Notes under the pieces: generated by a model | Told to the model about the DNA's origin: nothing | Seen by the model: only the letters and a program-made list of their open reading frames with translations | Databases searched by the model: none | Translations under genes and position numbers: made by a program | Part shown: piece by piece, positions 1-13,194 of the stretch | How positions within the stretch are numbered: the stretch's first letter is position 1 | How the letters are laid out: each line of letters opens with the position of its first letter | From: a virus | Taxonomy: Duplodnaviria > Heunggongvirae > Uroviricota > Caudoviricetes | Length of the DNA: 13,194 nucleotides | Reading direction: 5' to 3' (one strand) | Virus record (IMG/VR): IMGVR_UViG_2537561618_000005

Positions 1-357
1 ATGTCATCGTTCAGGCACCACTTCCTCCTAAACCGATCGAACGCGGTTATGCCAGTGCAGGGTTACTTGCACGGATCCTGGTCAGCAAATATATGGAACA
101 TATCCCTTTATATCGCCAGTCAGAAATATACGCGCGACAGGGCGTGGAGCTGAGCCGTAATACCATGGTGCGCTGGGTATCAGAAATGGCAGACAAACTC
201 CGTCCTCTGTATATAGCGCTGAATGACTATGTTCTGGAGGCAGGAAAGGTGCACGCAGATGACACTCCGGTGAAAGTACTGGCCCCGGGGAACGGAAAGA
301 CGAAAACGGGTCGTCTGTGGGTATACGTCAGGGATGATCGTAATGCGGGTTCATCCC
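1..357 (+). mobile_element. Remnant of an IS66-family insertion sequence (internal part of the transposase gene only), cut off by IS2 at 358
   Basis: Frame-3 translation from nt 3 (VIVQAPLPPKPIERGYASAGLLARILVSKYMEHIPLYRQSEIYARQGVELSRNTMVRWV...ADDTPVKVLAPGNGKTKTGRLWVYVRDDRNAG) matches IS66/ISEc8-type transposases as I remember them. No IS66 terminal repeat lies in the window. Confidence 0.7.
3..357 (+). pseudogene. IS66-family transposase (TnpC-like), internal fragment; 5' end outside window, 3' end replaced by IS2
   Basis: Open frame with no plausible start in the window. The reading frame runs straight into the IS2 left end and stops inside IS2 at 405-407. Confidence 0.75.
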
Positions 358-448
358 TAGACTGGCCCCCTGAATCTCCAGACAACCAGTATCACTTATT
401 TAAGTGATAGTCTTAATACTAGTTTTTAGACTAGTCATTGGAGAACAG

Positions 449-814
449 ATGATTGATGTCTTAGGGCCGGAGAAACGCAGACGGCGTACCACACAGGAAA
501 AGATCGCAATTGTTCAGCAGAGCTTTGAACCGGGGATGACGGTCTCCCTCGTTGCCCGGCAACATGGTGTAGCAGCCAGCCAGTTATTTCTCTGGCGTAA
601 GCAATACCAGGAAGGAAGTCTTACTGCTGTGGCCGCCGGAGAACAGGTTGTTCCTGCCTCTGAACTTGCTGCCGCCATGAAGCAGATTAAAGAACTCCAG
701 CGCCTGCTCGGCAAGAAAACGATGGAAAATGAACTCCTCAAAGAAGCCGTTGAATATGGACGGGCAAAAAAGTGGATAGCGCACGCGCCCTTATTGCCCG
801 GGGATGGGGAGTAA
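449..814 (+). CDS. insC: IS2 OrfA (InsC) transposase regulatory/HTH protein
   Basis: ATG at 449 preceded by GGAGAA. Translation [56 protein letters not shown]...[18 protein letters not shown] matches IS2 InsC from memory. The ORF-track start at 404 lies inside the IS terminal repeat and is unlikely. Confidence 0.9.
766..772 (+). promoter_or_regulatory. A AAA AAG programmed -1 ribosomal frameshift heptamer of IS2 (insC to insD)
   Basis: A6G run at 766-772 where the insC frame (frame 2) overlaps the insD frame (frame 1). IS3-family elements make the OrfAB transposase by -1 frameshifting at such motifs. Confidence 0.6.
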
Positions 815-1677
815 GCTTAGTCAGCCGTTGTCTCCGGGTGTCGCGTGCGCAGTTGCACGTCATTCTCAGACGAACCGATGACTGGATGGATGGCCGCCGC
901 AGTCGTCACACTGATGATACGGATGTGCTTCTCCGTATACACCATGTTATCGGAGAGCTGCCCACGTATGGTTATCGTCGGGTATGGGCGCTGCTTCGCA
1001 GACAGGCAGAACTTGATGGTATGCCTGCGATCAATGCCAAACGTGTTTACCGGCTCATGCGCCAGAATGCGCTGTTGCTTGAGCGAAAACCTGCTGTACC
1101 GCCATCGAAACGGGCACATACAGGCAGAGTGGCCGTGAAAGAAAGCAATCAGCGATGGTGCTCTGACGGGTTCGAGTTCTGCTGTGATAACGGAGAGAGA
1201 CTGCGTGTCACGTTCGCGCTGGACTGCTGTGATCGTGAGGCACTGCACTGGGCGGTGACTACCGGCGGCTTCAACAGTGAAACAGTACAGGATGTCATGC
1301 TGGGAGCGGTGGAACGCCGCTTCGGCAACGATCTTCCGTCGTCTCCAGTGGAGTAGCTGACGGATAATGGTTCATGCTACCGGGCTAATGAAACACGCCA
1401 GTTCGCCCGGATGTTGGGACTTGAACCGAAGAACACGGCGGTGCGGAGTCCGGAGAGTAACGGAATAGCAGAGAGCTTCGTGAAAACGATAAAGCGTGAC
1501 TACATCAGTATCATGCCCAAACCAGACGGGTTAACGGCAGCAAAGAACCTTGCAGAGGCGTTCGAGCATTATAACGAATGGCATCCGCATAGTGCGCTGG
1601 GTTATCGCTCGCCACGGGAATATCTGCGGCAGCGGGCTTGTAATGGGTTAAGTGATAACAGATGTCTGGAAATATAG
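772..1677 (+). pseudogene. insD: IS2 OrfB (InsD) transposase catalytic domain, interrupted by in-frame TAG at 1354-1356
   Basis: Frame 1 is InsD-like throughout ([20 protein letters not shown]...SSPVE then [41 protein letters not shown]...NRCLEI). Codon 1354-1356 is TAG where IS2 InsD has W (VEWLTDNG) in my memory, immediately before the DNG catalytic region. The track splits it into ORFs 772-1356 and 1411-1677 in the same frame. Confidence 0.8.
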
Positions 1678-1733
1678 GGGCAAATCCAGTATAAGCCATT
1701 ATCAAACCCACCCGTAGATAGGCTTTGTAATGG

Positions 1734-2021
1734 CTACTTCTTCAGAAATGATTCGATGAATTCACGTCGAGGATGACGATAGTTCAGAATATCTTCTGGC
1801 ATCCTCATAAAGCGGTTGTTGCCGTCTTTGGCAGTAACAAAACAGCTGTGAACTCCGCAGACATCCGTTTTGATCGTGTCGCTATACTCAAAAAGCAACT
1901 GAGCCATCTTCTCTTGCCATTCTGGAGGCATAGCCTCCATGAATACTCGCGGCATCACGCAGAACGACGTATGCGTAAGACCAAACCACAGTTGCAGGTC
2001 TTTACGATATTCTTCATCCAT
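1734..2021 (-). CDS. Hypothetical 95-aa protein ([95 protein letters not shown]), family not recognised
   Basis: ATG (reverse complement of 2019-2021) preceded by AAGGT with 6-nt spacing. The ORF-track ORF 1734-2117 continues upstream only because the frame stays open into the IS911 left end. The stop is 45 bp from the IS2 right end. I could not assign a family from memory. Confidence 0.4.
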
Positions 2022-2085
2022 CGTCTTTACCTTTGTTGCAATGATGAAGTGGCACACTGAATTTGGCCACCTGAACAGAGGTGAT

Positions 2086-3284
<1,199 letters not shown>

Positions 3285-3292
3285 CCACTTCA

Positions 3293-4447
3293 TGGATGCC
3301 TGTTGAGCAGGAAGCGCCAACCCAGACTGGCTGGGATTTAACTGGCAACGCAACCGGGATTCTGGAACTCTCCGTGAAGTGCAACATGGGCGATCCGGAT
3401 AACGATTTCTTCGAGCTTCGTGCAGATGACCTGCGTGATGAGCGTTCTTACCGTCGCCGCATCCAGGCATCCGCCAAAAAACTGGCGAATAACATTGAGT
3501 CAGCGATTGCCAAACAGGCAACTGAAATGGGCTCGCTTGTTGTTCACGATACCCGCGCAATTGGTCCATCGACTGGCCTGCCTGGCTGGGATTTTGTGTC
3601 TGATGCAGAGCGACTGATGTTCTCCCGTGAGCTAAACCGCGACATGGGCATCAGTTACTTCCTGAACCCTGACGATTACCGCAAAGCAGGCCGCAACCTG
3701 GTAGATGGTGACATCTTCGGGCGCGTTCCTGAAGAAGCATATCGAAACGGTACTATTCAGCGTCAGATTGCTGGCTTTGATGAAATTCTTCGCTCACCGA
3801 AACTTCCGGCAGTTACCAAGTCAACCGCGACTGGTGTAACTGTTTCTGGTGCGCAGAAGTTTAAGCCGCAGGCATACACCCTTGATACCGATGGTAACAA
3901 AGAGAACGTCGACAACCGTGTTGCAACGGTGACCGTATCCTCCACCACCGGATTTAAGCGCGGCGACAAAATCAGCTTCATTGGTGTGAAGTTCCTGTCT
4001 CAGATGGCGAAGAATGTGCTGACTGATGACGCGACTTTCTCAATCACCCGTGTGATCGATGGTACTCACATCGAAATCACGCCGAAGCCGATTGCGCTGG
4101 ATGACGCGTCACTGACAAAAGAAGAGAAGGCTTACGCTAACGTAAACACCTCTCTTGCTGATACCACTCCGGTAAACGTTCTGAACGTGGCAACAACCAC
4201 CGCTAACGTGTTCTGGGCTGATGACTCAATCCGCCTGCTGTCTCAGCCGATCCCGGTAACCCATGAACTGTTTGCTGGCATGAAAACGTCTTCCTTCAGC
4301 ATTCCAGGTATTGGTGTTAACGGCATCTTCGCAACGCAGGGTGATATCAACACTCTGTCTGGTAAGTGCCGTATTGCTGTGTGGTATTCAGCATGTGCTG
4401 TACGACCAGAGGCAATTGGTGTTGGTCTGCCTAACCAGACCGCGTGA
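3293..4447 (+). pseudogene. P22-type major capsid (coat) protein gene, 5'-truncated by the IS911 right end (about 45 N-terminal codons missing)
   Basis: Translation [16 protein letters not shown]...[33 protein letters not shown]...[39 protein letters not shown]...[34 protein letters not shown]...[14 protein letters not shown] is collinear with P22 gp5 coat as I remember it. The homology starts exactly at the IS911 boundary, with no native start codon or RBS. Confidence 0.9.
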
Positions 4448-4491: not shown

Positions 4492-4716
4492 ATGACACAC
4501 ATGATCTTTCGTCATGGCGACATGAAGAAGTGGAAAGGCGTTGGCTACGACTTTGAAATCGTGAAAGCCGAAGAGCTTCAGGAATATCTGGATGCTGGCT
4601 GGTTTTCACATCCTGATGACCTTTTGAAGGATGTTGCAGAGCCAGAAGAAAAACAGTGTAAAAAGCCTGGTCGAAAACCTAAGGCGGCAGCAGATGAACC
4701 TGACAACGAAGGGTGA
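4492..4716 (+). CDS. Small hypothetical protein (74 aa) between coat and adaptor genes
   Basis: ATG at 4492 preceded by GGAGA. Translation [74 protein letters not shown]. Its 3' end overlaps the next gene start by 23 nt. Function unknown. Confidence 0.5.
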
Positions 4717-5194
4717 TTTAGTTCTTGCGGCATTACGTAAGCTCGGTGTTGCATCAAATGCCACGTTAACCGATGTCGAACCGCAGTCTATGGAAGACGG
4801 CGTCAACGACCTTGAAATGATGATGGCTGAATGGCTTGGCGGTGATGCGTCACCTGGTATCAACGTTGGCTACATTTTTGCTGATGCAGATGTTGCTCCG
4901 GATCCGGGCGATGAGCACGGTTTATCAAATAACGCTATCAATGCCGTCATTTTCAACCTTGCCTGCCGAATTGCTCCAGATTATGCGCTGGAAGCGTCTG
5001 CAAAACTTATAACCACTGCCAGATACGGGAAAGAGCGACTCGTCAAACTGTCTGCAATGGACAGGGCAAAAGCAGCTAAATGTAAGTCCGGTTATCCAAA
5101 CCGTATGCCTGTTGGTAGTGGTAACCAGTTGGCGAAGTGGAATGGTTGGAATTACTTCCACCGAAAGGAACCTTGCGATAACGGGAGCGAATAA
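4694..5194 (+). CDS. Head-to-tail adaptor protein, P22 gp4-like (166 aa)
   Basis: [47 protein letters not shown]...[29 protein letters not shown]...[11 protein letters not shown] resembles P22 gp4 from memory, with the same length and position directly upstream of the gp10 homolog. The stop TAA overlaps the next ATG (ATAATG). Confidence 0.85.
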
Positions 5195-6612
5195 TGCCTA
5201 TTCAGCAACTTCCGCTTATGAAAGGTGTCGGCAAAGACTTCCGAAACGCCGACTATATCGACTATCTGCCAGTGAATATGCTGGCTACACCCAAAGAAAT
5301 CCTGAACAGCAGCGGATATCTTCGCCCATTCCCGGGCATTGCCAAACGTTCTGACGTGAACGGTGTATCTCGCGGCGTCGAGTACAACATGGCGCAGAAT
5401 GCTGTTTATCGCGTGTGTGGCGGCAAGCTGTACAAAGGAGAAAGTGAAGTCGGTGATGTTGCCGGAAGTGGTCGTGTATCAATGGCGCATGGTCGGACAT
5501 CACAGGCGGTAGGCGTTAATGGTCAACTGGTCGAGTATCGCTATGATGGCACGGTCAAAACCGTCTCAAACTGGCCTACAGACAGTGGATTCACTCAGTA
5601 TGAGTTAGGTTCAGTTCGCGACATTACGCGCTTACGTGGGCGTTATGCGTGGTCAAAAGACGGAACTGATTCATGGTTTATCACTGACCTTGAAGACGAA
5701 TCTCATCCTGACCGTTACAGCGCACAATATCGTGCCGAGTCTCAGCCTGACGGCATCATCGGTATCGGGACATGGCGAGACTTCATCGTCTGCTTTGGTT
5801 CATCGACTATTGAATATTTCTCCCTGACTGGCGCAACCACCGTTGGTGCCGCTTTGTATGTTGCACAACCATCGCTGATGGTGCAGAAAGGCATTGCCGG
5901 AACTTACTGCAAAACGCCATTCGCTGATTCGTATGCGTTTATCAGCAATCCGGCAACGGGTGCGCCGTCTGTGTATATCATCGACTCCGGTCAGGTGTCA
6001 CCAATTGCCAGCGCGAGCATTGAGAAAATCCTCCGCTCCTACACTGCTGATGAACTGGCTGATGGTGTGATGGAATCGCTGCGATTTGATGCTCATGAGT
6101 TGCTGATTATCCACCTTCCGCGTCACGTCCTCGTGTACGACGCATCTTCAAGCGCCAATGGCCCACAATGGTGTGTGCTGAAAACAGGTCTGTATGACGA
6201 TGTGTACCGCGCTATCGACTTCGTTTACGAAGGCAATCAGATAACGTGCGGCGATAAGCTGGAATCTGTTACCGGGAAACTGCAATTCGATATCAGCAGC
6301 CAGTACGACAAGCAACAGGAACACCTGCTGTTTACTCCACTCTTCAAAGCGGATAACGCCAGAGTGTTCGACCTTGAGGTTGAATCGTCAACTGGCGTTG
6401 CGCAGTACGCCGACCGCCTTTTTCTCTCTGCAACCACTGACTGCATCAATTACGGGCGTGAGCAGATGATTGAGCAGAATGAACCGTTCGTTTACGACAA
6501 GCGTGTTTTGTGGAAGCGAGTAGGGCGCATCAGGAAAAATGTCGGCTTCAAATTGCGCGTTATCACGAAGTCACCTGTCACTCTGTCTGGCGCTCAGATA
6601 AGGATTGAGTAA
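5194..6612 (+). CDS. Tail hub / tail accessory protein, P22 gp10-like (472 aa)
   Basis: [48 protein letters not shown]...[18 protein letters not shown]. Length and N-terminus agree with P22 gp10 as I remember it, and the gene is in the gp4-gp10-gp26 order. Confidence 0.88.
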
Positions 6613-7409
6613 TGGCTGATTCGAATCTCAATGTGCCGGTAATCATCCAAGCTACGCGGCTCGATACATCAGTCCTTCCACGCAATATCTTCTCGCAGTC
6701 GTATCTGCTTTACGTTATCGCACAGGGCACTGATGTTGGTAACGTGGCTAACAAAGCCAACGAGGCCGGACAGGGCGCTTATGATGCACAGGTCAGGAAC
6801 GATGAGCAGGATGTGATTCTCGCTGACCATGAGCAGCGAATTTCTGCTGCGGAAGCAACGCTTGTTAATCATGAGGAGCGAATCAGACAGGCAGAATCAA
6901 CTCTTCAGGACCATGAAACACGAATAGCTCAGAATGAAAGCGATATTTCGTCGCTTGACACAAGAGTTCAGTCGCTGGAGTCGCAGGTTTCAGACCATGA
7001 AACGCGCATCGATGCTCTGGAGTATGCAACCACACGCAAGAAGTCAGAGGTTGTTTACTCTGGTGTATCTGTAACCATCCCGACAGCGCCGACCAACCTT
7101 GTTAGCCTGCTGAAAACGCTCACACCGTCATCCGGCTCGTTGGCACCATTCTTCGACACCGTTAACAACAAGATGGTTGTGTTCAACGAGAACAAAACCC
7201 TGCTCTTCAAGTTGTCGATTGTCGGCACGTGGCCCAGCGGAACCGCCAACAGGTCAATGCAGCTAACCTTTTCCGGCTCTGTTCCTGACACACTGGTCAG
7301 CAGTCGTAATGCGGCGACAACAACCGACAACATCCTGTTAGCTACGTTCTTCAGCGTGGATAAAGACGGCTTTCTTGCCACAACCATCAAGATAATCGCG
7401 GAGCAGTGA
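6612..7409 (+). CDS. Tail needle protein, P22 gp26-like N-terminus and coiled-coil core with a divergent C-terminal domain (265 aa)
   Basis: N-terminus [68 protein letters not shown] is near-identical in pattern to P22 gp26. It is followed by DHE.RI heptad-type repeats. The last ~110 aa ([25 protein letters not shown]...TIKIIAEQ) do not resemble the P22 gp26 C-terminus. Confidence 0.85.
6825..7020 (+). repeat. Intragenic periodic repeats (about 42 nt / 14 aa; GACCATGA-R units) encoding the trimeric coiled-coil shaft of the tail needle
   Basis: [14 protein letters not shown] / [14 protein letters not shown] / [14 protein letters not shown] / ... / [19 protein letters not shown] or CATGA-containing units recur at 14- or 28-codon spacing. 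Confidence 0.5.
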
Positions 7410-7864
7410 TGATTACATTCAAACCAACGCGAAACATCGACCTGATAGAAGCAGTCGGAAATCACCCTGACATTATCGCCGGGAGCAACAACGGTGATGG
7501 ATACGACTACAAACCTGAATGCCGTTACTTTGAGGTGAACGTGCACGGTCAGTTTGGCGGCATTGTTTACTATCAGGAGATTCAGCCGCTGACATTAGAT
7601 TGCCACGCCATGTACCTGCCAGAGATTCGCGGCTTCAGCAAGGAAATTGGGCTGGCGTTCTGGCGATACATTCTGACTAACACCACCGTTCAGTGCGTAA
7701 CATCGTTCGCTGCACGCAAATTCCGACACGGTCAGATGTACTGCGCAATGATTGGCCTTAAGCGTGTAGGAACCATCAAGAAATACTTCAAAGGCGTGGA
7801 TGACGTGACTTTTTACAGCGCCACACGCGAAGAACTAATCGACTTCCTGAATCACGGGAGATAG
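7409..7864 (+). CDS. Hypothetical virion-associated protein at the position of P22 gene 14 (151 aa)
   Basis: ATG at 7409 overlaps the gp26-like stop (TGATG). Translation [51 protein letters not shown].... Assignment is by position only; I cannot confirm sequence similarity to P22 gp14 from memory. Confidence 0.55.
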   Translation: MITFKPTRNIDLIEAVGNHPDIIAGSNNGDGYDYKPECRYFEVNVHGQFGGIVYYQEIQPLTLDCHAMYLPEIRGFSKEIGLAFWRYILTNTTVQCVTSFAARKFRHGQMYCAMIGLKRVGTIKKYFKGVDDVTFYSATREELIDFLNHGR

Positions 7865-7866
7865 CC

Positions 7867-8475
7867 ATGTTATATGCATTTAAGCTGGGCAGAAAACTGT
7901 GCGGCGAGGAACCTTATTGCCCTGAAAAAGGCGGGAAAGGTGGCAGTTCTGATAAAAGCGCAAAGTATGCAGCAGAAGCCCAGAAGTATGCTGCAGACCT
8001 GCAAAATCAGCAGTGGCAGACGATCATGAAAAACCTTGCTCCGTTCACGCCTCTTGCGGAGCAGTATGTTAACCAGCTTCAGAACCTTTCCAGTTTAGAA
8101 GGTCAGGGGCAGGCACTTAATCAGTATTACAACTCTAAGCAGTATAAAGACCTTGCAGGGCAGGCGCGTTACCAGAGTCTTGCTGCTGCGGAGGCGACGG
8201 GTGGACTTGGTTCGACAGCCACAAGCAATCAACTGGCTACGATCGCGCCGACACTCGGTCAGTCTTGGTTATCAAATCAGATGAGCAATTACAACAATCT
8301 GGCAAACGTTGGGCTTGGTGCGCTGCAAGGTCAGGCAAACGCCGGGCAGACGTACGCCAACAACATGAGCAGCATTGCACAGCAAAGCGCAGCTCTTGCC
8401 AGCCTTTTGGGAACATCAACGCCTTGGGGCGCTGGTATTGGTGCTGGTATCGGATTGCTTGGCTCGTTGTTTTAA
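7867..8475 (+). CDS. DNA-ejection (E) protein, P22 gp7-like (202 aa)
   Basis: ATG at 7867 preceded by GGGAGA. Gln/Asn/Ala/Gly-rich low-complexity protein with a Gly-rich hydrophobic C-terminus (WGAGIGAGIGLLGSLF). Position and composition are typical of the first P22-type ejection protein. Confidence 0.8.
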   Translation: MLYAFKLGRKLCGEEPYCPEKGGKGGSSDKSAKYAAEAQKYAADLQNQQWQTIMKNLAPFTPLAEQYVNQLQNLSSLEGQGQALNQYYNSKQYKDLAGQARYQSLAAAEATGGLGSTATSNQLATIAPTLGQSWLSNQMSNYNNLANVGLGALQGQANAGQTYANNMSSIAQQSAALASLLGTSTPWGAGIGAGIGLLGSLF

Positions 8476-8484
8476 GGGGTAATC

Positions 8485-9816
8485 ATGGCTACTTGGCAAG
8501 GAACAAACGGCGGATTGTTGGCTGGTATCGGCGGCGTCAACTCAAACGCTCCGAGCGTAAATGACATCGGCAATACGCTTCAGCTTATCAGGCAGAACAA
8601 TGATATTGAGCGTTCAGGCGCTAACAATGTTGGGCTGACTGCTTTGCAAGGTCTTTCAGGTATTGCGGGTGTTTTTCAGCAGGAAAAGCAGGCTCAGCGG
8701 CAGAAAGAATTTCAGCAGGCGTACGCTAATGCTTATGCGTCTGGTGATCGCGGTGCTTTGCGTCAGTTGGCTACTCAATATCCAGACCAGATTGAATCCG
8801 TTCGTAAAGGCATGGGATTCATTGATGAAGAGCAGCGTAATTCTATCGGCACCTTAGCGGCTGGCGCACGCCTTGCGTCATCGTCTCCAGAAGCAATGCA
8901 ATCATGGCTGCAAAACAACGCCGGTGAGTTAGCTCGTGTTGGCGTTAATCCTCATGACGTCGCTCAGATGTACCAACAGAACCCGCGGCAGTTCGGCGAA
9001 TTTGTCGATCACCTGGGGATGAACAGTCTCGGGCCCGAAAAATACTTTGACCTACAGGATAAAATGCAGGGTCGCCAGGTTACCATGCGCGGTCAGGATC
9101 TGGATTCGCAAACCGCCGCTCGGAATCAGGCAATCACAATGCGCGGACAAGATATCCAGGCGAATTTAGGTCAGCAGCGCATTAATCTGGACGCAGAAAC
9201 AAACCGCATTAACAACGAAAATAAGCGCCTTGACCGGATGCTATCAGCAGAAACTAACGACCTGAAGCGCCAGGAAATACAGAGCCGCATAGCAGCCAAC
9301 AACCAGCAGTTGCAGCAGAAGCAGCAAGCGCTAAATGATGGCTACAAAGACGGCATCAACACCCTCACAACCAGCATGTTCACTCTGAACGATATCGTTA
9401 GTTCTCCTTCACTTAAGAGCATTACAGGCTTACGTGGAGTAATCCCCAACGTTCCAGGCTCACAGGCTGCAGACACTCAGGCACGACTTGATACCTTTAA
9501 ATCACAAGCATACCTGACAGCGGTTCAGGCCATGCGAGGCATGGGCGCACTTTCTGATGCCGAGGGCAAAAAGCTCGACCAGGCTGTTGGTTCGCTGCAG
9601 AACTCGCAGAGCGAGGAGTCCTTTCGTCGCAACGCTGGCGTCATCCTGAACACGCTCAACCAGAAGCGTAATGAGGCGGTTGGTAAGTACGTTCAGCAAA
9701 ACGGTATCAAGCGAGTGGAAGCGCCTCAGGCTTCTATAGATTACCTGAAGCAGCACCCCGAGCTGTCAATCGACTTCATTAATCGCTACGGATATCTTCC
9801 ATCTTTGGGGCAGTAA
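8485..9816 (+). CDS. DNA-ejection (E) protein, P22 gp20-like (443 aa)
   Basis: ATG at 8485 preceded by AAGGGG. Translation MATWQGTNGGLLAGIGGVNSNAPS.... Gln-rich with internal TMRGQD repeats. Position and size match the second ejection protein. Confidence 0.8.
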   Translation: MATWQGTNGGLLAGIGGVNSNAPSVNDIGNTLQLIRQNNDIERSGANNVGLTALQGLSGIAGVFQQEKQAQRQKEFQQAYANAYASGDRGALRQLATQYPDQIESVRKGMGFIDEEQRNSIGTLAAGARLASSSPEAMQSWLQNNAGELARVGVNPHDVAQMYQQNPRQFGEFVDHLGMNSLGPEKYFDLQDKMQGRQVTMRGQDLDSQTAARNQAITMRGQDIQANLGQQRINLDAETNRINNENKRLDRMLSAETNDLKRQEIQSRIAANNQQLQQKQQALNDGYKDGINTLTTSMFTLNDIVSSPSLKSITGLRGVIPNVPGSQAADTQARLDTFKSQAYLTAVQAMRGMGALSDAEGKKLDQAVGSLQNSQSEESFRRNAGVILNTLNQKRNEAVGKYVQQNGIKRVEAPQASIDYLKQHPELSIDFINRYGYLPSLGQ

Positions 9817-11547
9817 ATGGCTAATTACCGTGATTTGTTAGAGCAGGCTGGCGCACGTTACGGTGTGCCAGAAGGGTTGATGACTGCACTGGGTGCCAAG
9901 GAGTCTTCTTACAACCCTGCCGCAGTAAGCTCCGCCGGGGCTGTAGGATTGACTCAGGTCATGCCTGGGACATGGCGTGATATGGGTTATACCGATGAGC
10001 AAATGCAAAACCCCGAATATCAGGCTGACGCTGGCGCGCGCTATCTGGCAAAGATGTACCAGCAGTTTGGTAACTGGCGTGACGCTCTTCAGGCTTATCA
10101 CGACGGTCCCGGCAACGTTATGAAGGCAAAGCGTGGTGAATATACGCCAGGACCTGAAGGCCGCGGTTACGTTGATGATCGCTTTGCTCAATGGGCTGGT
10201 GACCCGGTGACAGACTCAACAGTCGAACAGCGCGCCACCTCTGCAAAGGTACATCCTCAGCAAGACCCTAACAACCCGTTTGCACAACTGGAAGTACAGT
10301 CATCCGAACAAGTATCGGCATCAGGTGTGCAGTCAGACCCAAATAATCCATTTGCTCAGATTGAGCAGCAGGCAGCCAGTCAGCAGCCACCTCAACCCGT
10401 AAGTTCTGTCGCACCGAAACCTGTTCAGCAACAAACAGTTAATCAGGCCAATAATGCACCAACACGGGAAGAACCATCATTGATGCAACAAGCTGGCGAT
10501 TGGCTCACTGGTGGTCAAAGTGCAGGGCAAATTGCAGAACAGGCTGGTCGTGGTCTGGTAAACATACCATTTGACGTATTGCAGGGTGGCGCAAGTCTGA
10601 TTAATGCAATCAGTCAGGGGCTTGGGGGGCCAAAAGTATTGGATGATGTTTATCGTCCAGTAGACAGACCGACAGACCCCTACGCGCAAGCTGGAGAGTC
10701 AATAGGCGGTTATCTTGTTCCTGGAGCAGGTGTAGCTGGAAACATGGTCATTGGTTCTCTCGCTGACGCGGCGAATCAACGGGGTGATTTTGCCGAAAAT
10801 GCCGCTATTAATGCCGGACTTAGCATTGCTACGCATGGCCTGATAAATGGCGTTACCCGTGGTGTTCGTGGTGCATCAAATATAATTAGTGGCAATAAAA
10901 CATCTGCACAGAGAGCGACCACTGCGCCAACAGAAACATCACCATTCTCCGGTGATGCCGCTGCAGCAACAAATCCTGCGGTTCATGCCGCAGAGGCAAG
11001 AGTAGCACAAGGTGTACCAATGACGCCTGCGACGAAGAACCCAGAGGAAGTCGTTCGCACAGTAGCAGCACAAAAAAGGCCAAATCTCGCTTCATCGCTT
11101 GATGAACTAGATATCAATCCTCAGGCTGAAGTTCTGGAGTCTGCTGAAAGGCTTAATGTTGATTCATTACTCCCTTCACACTTTTCCGGGAACGAGCAAT
11201 ACAAGGCAGTTGAGCAAGCAATCAAGTCCCGTGCGGGTTCTGCTCTACAGGTGCAGGAAAATGAAGCAATCAGGCAGCTAGCACAGGGCGCGGGTGAGAT
11301 AATTGATCGCGTTTCCGGTGCAAAAGATGCTCTTGGTATGAGCGACAAGTTTATTGATACGGTCAATGGAAGAATGTCTGCGCTGATGAAACGAAGCGAC
11401 CAGCTTTATCGCAATGTTGAAAAGGCGATGCCTGCAGGTGCAAAAATTGATGCGCCATCAACAAGGTCAATGCTCAAACAGGTGGCAGAAGATCTTGGCG
11501 GGATGAAAAACCTTGACCCTATTGAAAAGAGAGTTGAGGTAGCCTGA
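9817..11547 (+). CDS. DNA-ejection / internal virion protein, P22 gp16-position, with N-terminal lytic transglycosylase (SLT)-like domain (576 aa)
   Basis: ATG at 9817 directly after the gp20-like stop (TAAATG). The N-terminal ~110 aa carry family-1 lytic transglycosylase motifs ([28 protein letters not shown], then AYHDGPGN). Two DPNNPFAQ peptide repeats occur mid-protein. Confidence 0.8.
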
Positions 11548-11618: not shown

Positions 11619-11672
11619 TGAACCGCCCCGGGAATCCTGGAGACTAAACTTCCTGAGAAAGAGGTAAACAGG

Positions 11673-11995
11673 ATGACTAAAAATACTCGTTTTTCCCCCG
11701 AAGTCCGTCAACGGGCAGTCCGTATGGTTCTGGAAAGTCAGGGCGAATATGACTCACAATGGGCGACAATTTGTTCCATTGCCCCAAAGATTGGCTGTAC
11801 GCCGGAGACTCTGCGTGTCTGGGTTCGCCAGCATGAGCGGGATACCGGGGGCGGTGATGGAGGGCTCACCACCGCTGAACGTCAGCGTCTGAAAGAGCTG
11901 GAGCGTGAAAATCGTGAACTGCGCCGCAGTAACGATATCCTTCGCCAGGCTTCCGCTTATTTTGCGAAGGCGGAGTTCGACCGCCTCTGGAAAAA

Positions 11996-11999
<4 letters not shown>
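11673..11999 (+). CDS. IS629-like OrfA (HTH / leucine-zipper transposase N-terminal protein)
   Basis: [108 protein letters not shown] matches IS629/IS1203 OrfA from memory. Confidence 0.9.
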
Positions 12000-12882
<883 letters not shown>

Positions 12883-12924
12883 GTTCACAGATAAAACACT
12901 CTCCAGGAAACCCGGGGCGGTTCA

Positions 12925-13194
12925 GTTGTCGAACCAGTAGTCGAGACACTGGGCGACCGTCATGGAGTTCTCCACCTTCTCTTCAAAATAAGTGCGTGGA
13001 TCCGTTCCTGAGAAATAGAGCTTTCGCAAGTCAGCAGTGATCTGTCTGGCATCCTTCAAAGACAGGGATGGGTATCGACCAAGCCCAAGTCGATTAGGCT
13101 TGCCATGCCAGCGATAGCGGTACTGGAACTGGATGACCCCCTTCGGTGAAATTCGTACGCTGAGGCCATCAGCATCAGCCACTTCTTGTGGGCC
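12925..13194 (-). pseudogene. Tyrosine recombinase (P4-type phage integrase) N-terminal arm-binding domain fragment; 5' end beyond window, 3' end truncated at the IS629-like junction
   Basis: Minus-strand translation ...GPQEVADADGLSVRISPKGVIQFQYRYRWHGKPNRLGLGRYPSLSLKDARQITADLRKLYFSGTDPRTYFEEK... fits the integrase N-terminal pattern (GL.V.V.PKG.K.F.YRYR..GK..R..LG.YP..SL..AR). The frame is open to the window edge. The terminating TGA is supplied by the IS terminus (reverse complement of 12922-12924). Confidence 0.7.

Follow-up and report, generated by a model that had tools for sequence, protein, structure and literature searches.

The open reading frame at positions 6612-7409 (+ strand) is, with a probability that we put at roughly 85%, an Sf6-type tail needle gene that persists as a decaying relic in a dead prophage fragment of Shigella flexneri. 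The window, that is, the whole 13,194-nt stretch of DNA analysed here, corresponds to draft contig AFHC01000013.1 of assembly GCA_000213475.2. According to the scenario that we favour, 51 nt of the needle gene were lost between 8-bp repeats, so that strand 6 of the seven that make up the knob, together with conserved residues, disappeared and the knob would be misfolded. The neighbours of the gene would be decaying in the same manner, as illustrated by a coat gene truncated by an insertion sequence (IS) and by a deletion flanked by microhomology in the gp7-like gene.

The needle frame runs from an ATG to a TGA and comprises 265 codons. The start codon shares bases with the stop codon of the gp10-like gene upstream (TAATG), and the stop codon with the start codon of the gp14-like gene downstream (TGATG); genes of phage late operons are typically coupled this closely. 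The location between gp10 and gp14 homologues (PF11134 upstream and PF11039 downstream) is that of the needle gene in the late operon of P22-like phages. When the deduced protein was compared with Pfam, it matched PF16532 (Phage_tail_NK, "Sf6-type phage tail needle knob") with an E value of 1.6e-100 and a score of 334 bits, versus a cut-off of 27, and a comparison with PHROGs assigned it to phrog_1030 ("tail needle knob"; E = 2e-119). A sequence search of the PDB divided the protein into two overlapping parts: residues 1-144 matched the P22 gp26 structures 2POH, 3C9I, 4LIN, 4ZXQ and 8EAP (E about 1e-43), and residues 130-258 matched the knobs of Sf6 (3RWN; E = 1.2e-74) and HS1 (4K6B; E = 1.2e-73). 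Judged by these statistics, the homology lies far beyond chance. Two antisense frames that overlie the gene (7055-7546 and 6669-6872, - strand) had no PHROG family and were judged spurious. Rfam and tRNA scans gave no match in or beside the needle gene and no tRNA; the sole Rfam match was an ALIL frameshift pseudoknot at 11954-12070, within the IS element that closes the remnant on the right.

At the nucleotide level, the gene followed gene 9 of Shigella phage Sf6 collinearly from end to end, and 785 of the 798 aligned nucleotides were identical (98.4% outside the 51-nt gap). The differences affected 13 codons, 10 of them synonymously (one being the stop codon) and 3 non-synonymously, the latter resulting in the substitutions T176S, F198L and S234A. 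The gp10-, gp14-, gp7- and gp20-like neighbours were likewise collinear with Sf6, at 94 to 97% nucleotide identity.

Three regions can be distinguished in the protein. The N-terminal domain (aa 1-60; 6612-6791, + strand) showed 82% identity (49/60) to P22 gp26, 97% to HK620 gp26 and 100% to Sf6 gp9, and aligned with PDB entries 8EAP_B (E = 1.6e-27), 2POH and 3C9I. It is followed by the coiled-coil shaft (aa about 61-139; 6792-7028, + strand), which aligned with the helical core of P22 gp26 (2POH, 3C9I and 4LIN; E about 1e-43), gave weak matches to coiled-coil families of Pfam over residues about 57-145, and was modelled as a single long continuous helix in the undeleted allele P0016, where this stretch is identical. 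By these alignments an alpha-helical coiled-coil shaft is present, its trimeric state being taken as that of the homologues. A gp26-like N terminus followed by a coiled-coil shaft was what an earlier, sequence-only reading of this DNA had described, and this description was borne out. The third region is the Sf6-type knob domain (aa 140-265, equivalent to Sf6 aa 140-282 minus 17 residues; 7029-7406, + strand), which matched 3RWN and 4K6B with E values of about 1e-74.

Similarity to P22 gp26 faded well before the knob. The divergence started inside the shaft, at about residue 73, and identity fell to 26% over residues 73-140 and to 20% over residues 141-265, the latter in a forced alignment. 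[quoted passage not shown] The sequence-only reading had proposed that the C-terminal ~110 residues were wholly unlike those of P22 and formed a beta-rich globular domain. The beta-rich nature and the lack of relationship to the P22 tip stood, whereas the limits had to be revised, the start of the knob moving from residue 155 to about 140 and its length to about 125 residues. The resemblance to the Sf6 needle knob that it had pointed out proved exactly right.

In a working P22-like virion, the needle would be a trimeric fibre whose first ~60 residues close off the gp10 hub channel and retain the DNA. The coiled-coil shaft would reach beyond the tailspikes, and the distal TNF-like jellyroll knob, with three L-glutamates bound, would influence the speed with which DNA and ejection proteins are delivered. 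That the N-terminal domain of the P22 and Sf6 needles plugs the tail-hub channel, and that the needle is released at infection, has been reported previously (PMC3741392, PMC9728967). The functions of plug, shaft and knob are those established for Sf6, HS1 and P22, rather than for the window copy.

Among the characterized needles, Sf6 gp9 (NP_958185; knob structure 3RWN; PF16532) is the closest, sharing with the window protein the three-part architecture and a gene located between those for the gp10- and gp14-like proteins. Apart from the three substitutions mentioned above, the window needle is identical to that of Sf6 over residues 1-255 and over its last 10 residues. In contrast to Sf6 gp9, which has 282 residues, the window needle lacks Sf6 residues 256-272, corresponding to beta-strand 6 and the next turn; moreover, it resides in a defective remnant, whereas Sf6 is a viable phage. 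The needle of the Escherichia coli prophage HS1 carries a knob (4K6B) about 99% identical to that of Sf6, and it matched the window frame with an E value of about 1e-73, but its shaft is longer (16 heptads versus 11) and its knob is intact. For its part, P22 gp26 (2POH, 3C9I) shares with the window protein the hub-plug domain, a homologous coiled-coil shaft and the same genomic position, while its C-terminal tip is unrelated to the window knob.

The feature that sets this allele apart is the in-frame absence of 51 nt, equivalent to the 17 amino acids ATNGSTLTIQSNGASFT, when compared with Sf6, Kapi1 and every other homologue aligned. In Sf6 gene 9, TGCCACAA flanks the missing stretch and occurs twice, first at gene position 765 and again 51 nt further on at 816, while the window retains a single copy at the junction (7376-7383, + strand). 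One copy in place of two is the signature of replication slippage or of a microhomology-mediated deletion, and from this arrangement we infer that the 51 nt were lost by one of these routes. All 22 homologues in the alignment, the most distant with 47% identity, kept the deleted segment, in which A, N, G and S ("LATNGS") and N and G ("SNG") are nearly invariant. The 57 proteins recovered in a knob-domain search of a large protein database were mostly partial, and so were usable for alignment and not for a census of deletion alleles.

In Sf6-type needles, three seven-stranded jellyrolls assemble into the TNF-like trimer of the knob, to which three L-glutamates are bound (PMC3741392). In the model of the undeleted allele, the seven strands comprised residues 144-156, 196-206, 214-220, 226-232, 239-248, 262-267 and 271-281 (Sf6 numbering). 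The deletion takes out the whole of strand 6 (262-267), the turn that follows it and the first two residues of strand 7, leaving the jellyroll without its sixth strand. The residues that contact L-glutamate (E146, K200, S248, D250, L255 and K277, the last of which is K260 here and lies just past the junction) were all kept, as was the S231-R232-N233 triad. The N-terminal plug domain and the shaft are intact in sequence.

To compare the two alleles, AlphaFold2 monomer models of both were built from one 23-sequence alignment, using as control P0016, an undeleted S. flexneri allele that is otherwise identical (it also carries S176, L198 and A234). The control was modelled with a mean pLDDT of 88.1 and seven knob strands, and it superimposed on 3RWN and 4K6B with TM scores of 0.89 to 0.90 and an rmsd of 2.2 Å. 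With the deleted allele, the mean pLDDT dropped to 58.6, residues 84-123 of the model scored below 50, and the comparison with the same structures gave TM scores of about 0.52 to 0.59 and rmsd values of 13 to 15 Å, bearing in mind that monomer AlphaFold2 models from a shallow alignment are weak guides to the consequences of deletions. Given the loss of strand 6 and of the conserved residues, the knob lacking 17 residues (delta-17) most likely no longer folds or trimerises properly. The gene is homologous by descent to the Sf6-type needles, with a knob fold that is probably not intact.

The surroundings of the needle gene point in the same direction. The phage genes form a block of about 8.3 kb bounded by IS elements and comprise a truncated coat gene, a small ORF (phrog_1175) and gp4-, gp10-, needle, gp14-, gp7-, gp20- and gp16-like genes, the coat gene and the series from gp4 to gp16 lying on the + strand. 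The left boundary is an IS3-family element (2044-3293, + strand; HTH_Tnp_1 and rve ORFs), which was inverted in three other loci (L003, L011 and L012). This element truncates the 5' end of the P22-type coat gene (3281-4447), of which about 46 N-terminal residues are gone: PF11651 was matched from profile position 47 of 423, and the full gene, present in locus L004, encodes 431 aa. Next come the gp4-like tail adaptor gene (4694-5194) and the gp10-like tail hub gene (5194-6612), a pair identified by PF11650 and PF11134, the latter gene with 94.4% nucleotide identity to Sf6. Downstream of the needle lie the gp14-like (7409-7864; PF11039), gp7-like (7867-8475), gp20-like (8485-9816) and gp16-like (9817-11547) genes, the last three accounting for the Pfam matches PF25688, PF16928 and PF01464. 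The right boundary is another IS3-family element, IS629-like (11619-12924, + strand), with 25-nt terminal inverted repeats and transposase ORFs. No terminase, portal, scaffold or tailspike gene was found in the 13,194-nt window. An in-frame deletion between TCTTGCC repeats has removed 84 nt (28 aa) from the gp7-like gene in the window but not in L004, and in another locus (L008) gp14 was reduced to 107 aa. Still, the seven phage ORFs from gp4 to gp16 are all open in the window.

Judged by its gene content, the remnant is a fragment of a P22-like (Sf6/Sf101-related) prophage that lacks a complete virion gene set, and not a functional prophage. Because it is bounded by IS elements and lacks essential virion genes, the needle that it encodes could not be part of a virion made by its own locus. 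The entry role that the sequence-only reading had suggested for this domain was, for the window copy, not supported, given the state of the locus and a knob deprived of a conserved strand.

The fullest version of the remnant that we found, L004 (CP037996.1), kept the portal and scaffold genes, a full coat gene and a full gp7, together with the same needle deletion. There, the terminase gene was cut short by an IS element and by the degraded reverse transcriptase of a group II intron, a further IS element followed gp16, and there was no tailspike gene. Since L004 has the needle deletion but full coat and gp7 genes, comparison of the loci places the needle deletion before the coat truncation and the gp7 deletion. 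The remnant adjoined psiF-phoA-iraP-ddlA in four loci (L003 to L006), and in L003 about 5 kb separated it from a gene that shares 99.6% identity with oacB of phage Sf101. At its right end, the window matched the 5' end of the integrase gene of Sf101 with 99.6% identity. In a published account (PMC4159516), oacB resides on a "transposon-like structure upstream of adrA", flanked by IS elements and derived from a disrupted Sf101-like prophage, and the location of the S. flexneri remnant, as read from these flanks, fits that oacB-bearing prophage.

Small P22-like remnants that include an Sf6-type needle gene are known from more than 100 E. coli genomes, an example being the defective prophage EC4113-1 (PMC3741392). 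Like these, the window holds a P22-like fragment of several genes in which an Sf6-type needle gene is retained. Unlike it, the E. coli copies examined retain the 51 nt, and the window remnant belongs to S. flexneri and is associated with oacB and an Sf101-type integrase.

The delta-17 allele was confined to S. flexneri in the collections searched. The exact 265-aa protein, named "tail needle knob protein [Shigella flexneri]", was found on 343 contigs, and the remnant is widespread in this species. The needle DNA, including the junction, was 100% identical in six S. flexneri assemblies (the window and five others, among them the complete chromosomes CP034060.1 and CP037996.1). A 46-nt probe, for which an exact 28-mer across the junction was required, gave no match to the deletion in 5,426 complete E. 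coli genomes (402 of them with the 3' end of a knob gene) or in 50,697 phage records. In the GTDB species-representative genomes, a search for an exact 23-nt pattern of the junction gave no match, and in IMG/VR this pattern matched two contigs, both of them representing the same remnant. The complete identity of the needle DNA among S. flexneri strains points to clonal inheritance and provides no evidence of selection.

These data bear on the alternative that fares best against the relic reading, namely, that the shortened knob is a functional, selected six-stranded variant and that the needle and ejection module is kept by the host or as a reservoir for phage recombination. In agreement with this alternative, the deletion is in frame, the glutamate contacts and the S-R-N triad are retained, the fused C-terminal strand closely resembles the native one over 12 residues, the reading frames are open all the way from gp4 to gp16, and the allele is widespread in S. 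flexneri. Nevertheless, we regard it as improbable. An identical needle sequence in all the S. flexneri loci examined is what clonal descent would leave, every homologue aligned conserves the deleted segment, and model confidence collapses for the deleted allele relative to P0016. Furthermore, no phage genome or intact prophage with the allele was found (phage records, IMG/VR, GTDB species-representative genomes and complete E. coli genomes), and decay also affects the neighbouring genes. Mutants in the glutamate site of the knob are viable (PMC3741392). P22 tolerates a foldon in place of its needle tip (PMC3741392), so a damaged tip alone need not kill the needle.

Even less probable, in our opinion, is that the C-terminal domain is a newly swapped one acting as a host-range or entry determinant at a recombination hotspot, as the sequence-only reading had proposed. 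The gene is indeed mosaic with respect to P22 and HK620: HK620, Dewey and UPF_BP1 matched only nucleotides 1-209/224 of the needle gene (91 to 93% identity) and then diverged. Kapi1 and Louie, in turn, diverged directly after the needle stop codon. Module boundaries thus do exist in this gene family. However, the needle gene and its flanks are collinear with Sf6, and full-length collinearity with a single known needle had been named beforehand as the finding that would speak against a swap. Both types of needle tip, P22 type and Sf6 type, were described along with their distribution by Leavitt et al. in 2013, who found the Sf6-type knob in 69 of 164 P22-like genomes, with differences among those knobs of no more than 4.9% in amino acid sequence (PMC3741392). 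The mosaic relation of Sf6-type needles to P22 gp26 is thus real, family-wide and already published, and by alignment the knob of the window gene is the known Sf6-type domain, not a new replacement. A role in host range is contradicted by the observation that a P22 chimera with the HS1 (Sf6-type) knob infects Salmonella efficiently, the needle tip affecting DNA-delivery kinetics and not host specificity (PMC3741392). In addition, the window copy lies in a dead remnant.

More speculatively still, and with very little expectation on our part, an expressed delta-17 needle might assemble with the needle of a superinfecting Sf6-like phage or take its place, in a dominant-negative, defence-like manner, or its knob might fold with six strands and altered DNA-delivery kinetics. 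If such co-assembly took place, it would yield virions with a defective tip.

The draft status of the 13-kb contig and a junction that consists of a short repeat might suggest that the 51-nt deletion arose in sequencing or assembly. Such an artefact is effectively ruled out by independent assemblies, as the same junction and gene recur in five others, including two complete chromosomes, and in two contigs of IMG/VR, and the exact protein recurs on the 343 contigs mentioned above.

Taken as a gene, the needle described here is an ordinary one: its family, its structure, its mosaicism with P22 gp26 and its lack of a role in host specificity have all been published, and the IS-disrupted, oacB-associated prophage fragment of S. 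flexneri has already been described in outline. What is added is small, consisting of a lineage-specific deletion of 17 aa in the knob, between 8-bp repeats, and a similar deletion of 28 aa in gp7, both in S. flexneri. The two deletions neatly illustrate microhomology-mediated decay of a cryptic prophage. Annotators should bear in mind that the S. flexneri "tail needle knob protein" of 265 aa probably does not function as a needle, and the deletion junction could serve as a lineage marker. Relatives of the knob also occur in large myoviruses, as noted previously by Leavitt et al. (PMC3741392).

The gp7-like ejection protein gene (7867-8475) carries an in-frame deletion of 84 nt (28 amino acids) compared to the same gene in Sf6 and in L004, the fullest version of the remnant (in CP037996.1), with the junction near position 8393. 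In the full-length gene the 84-nt stretch is bracketed by a TCTTGCC direct repeat, and this is the second microhomology deletion within the remnant. Since L004 shares the needle deletion and retains a full-length gp7-like gene, the deletion in the latter is the younger of the two.

Insertion sequences also lie in the left-hand part of the window. The P22-type coat gene has lost its 5' end to an IS3-family element (2044-3293) and is left as a truncated version at 3281-4447, with a Pfam match that begins at profile position 47. This IS3-family element lies in the opposite orientation in L003, L011, and L012, other loci containing this remnant, and the point at which the coat gene is cut varies among other strains (383, 276, and 431 amino acids). 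The inverted element and the differing cuts suggest repeated IS-mediated rearrangement. Further to the left come a fragment of an IS66-family transposase (93-407) and, after it, a second IS3-family element in which the integrase-core ORF is broken into two (772-1356 and 1411-1677). The region from 93 to 1677 looks like a heap of degraded insertion sequences. In L004, the start of the remnant (312-3379 of that locus) is made up of a group II intron reverse transcriptase/maturase with a frameshift plus an IS3-family fragment, both abutting a large terminase gene that is truncated at its 5' end.

At the right-hand side, an IS629-like element of the IS3 family occupies 11619-12924, with 25-nt terminal inverted repeats that are 92% complementary, and a programmed-frameshift pseudoknot of the ALIL type (11954-12070, 116 bits) lies within it. 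The transposase of this element may be disrupted, given that the orfB region reads as a pair of ORFs, 11996-12352 and 12214-12882, which overlap but differ in frame.

Regarding the origin of the remnant, the gp20-like gene (8485-9816) includes ∼177 nt, at about 8824, that are absent from Sf6, and in its coat region and its gp16-like gene the window is closer to phages APC_JM3.2, Dewey, and IME10 than to Sf6. Judging from these sequence comparisons, the parent of the remnant was a mosaic in which Sf6-like modules were combined with HK620/IME10-like ones.

At its right end (12924-13194, minus strand), the window showed 99.6% identity to the 5' end of the integrase gene of phage Sf101. A gene with 99.6% identity to Sf101 oacB, encoding O-antigen O-acetyltransferase B, was found in L003 (635-2620), where it is separated by ∼5 kb from the remnant on its right. 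Carriage of oacB on a "transposon-like structure upstream of adrA" has already been published (PMC4159516), and the remnant therefore seems to be part of that structure.

[quoted passage not shown] Among them were Vi01-like phages as well as T4-like phages whose hosts are Salmonella, E. coli, Dickeya, and Aeromonas, in agreement with the knob relatives in large myoviruses remarked on by Leavitt et al. 2013 (PMC3741392). Several of the myovirus records bear the annotation "tail needle knob," although those phages lack a P22-type needle.
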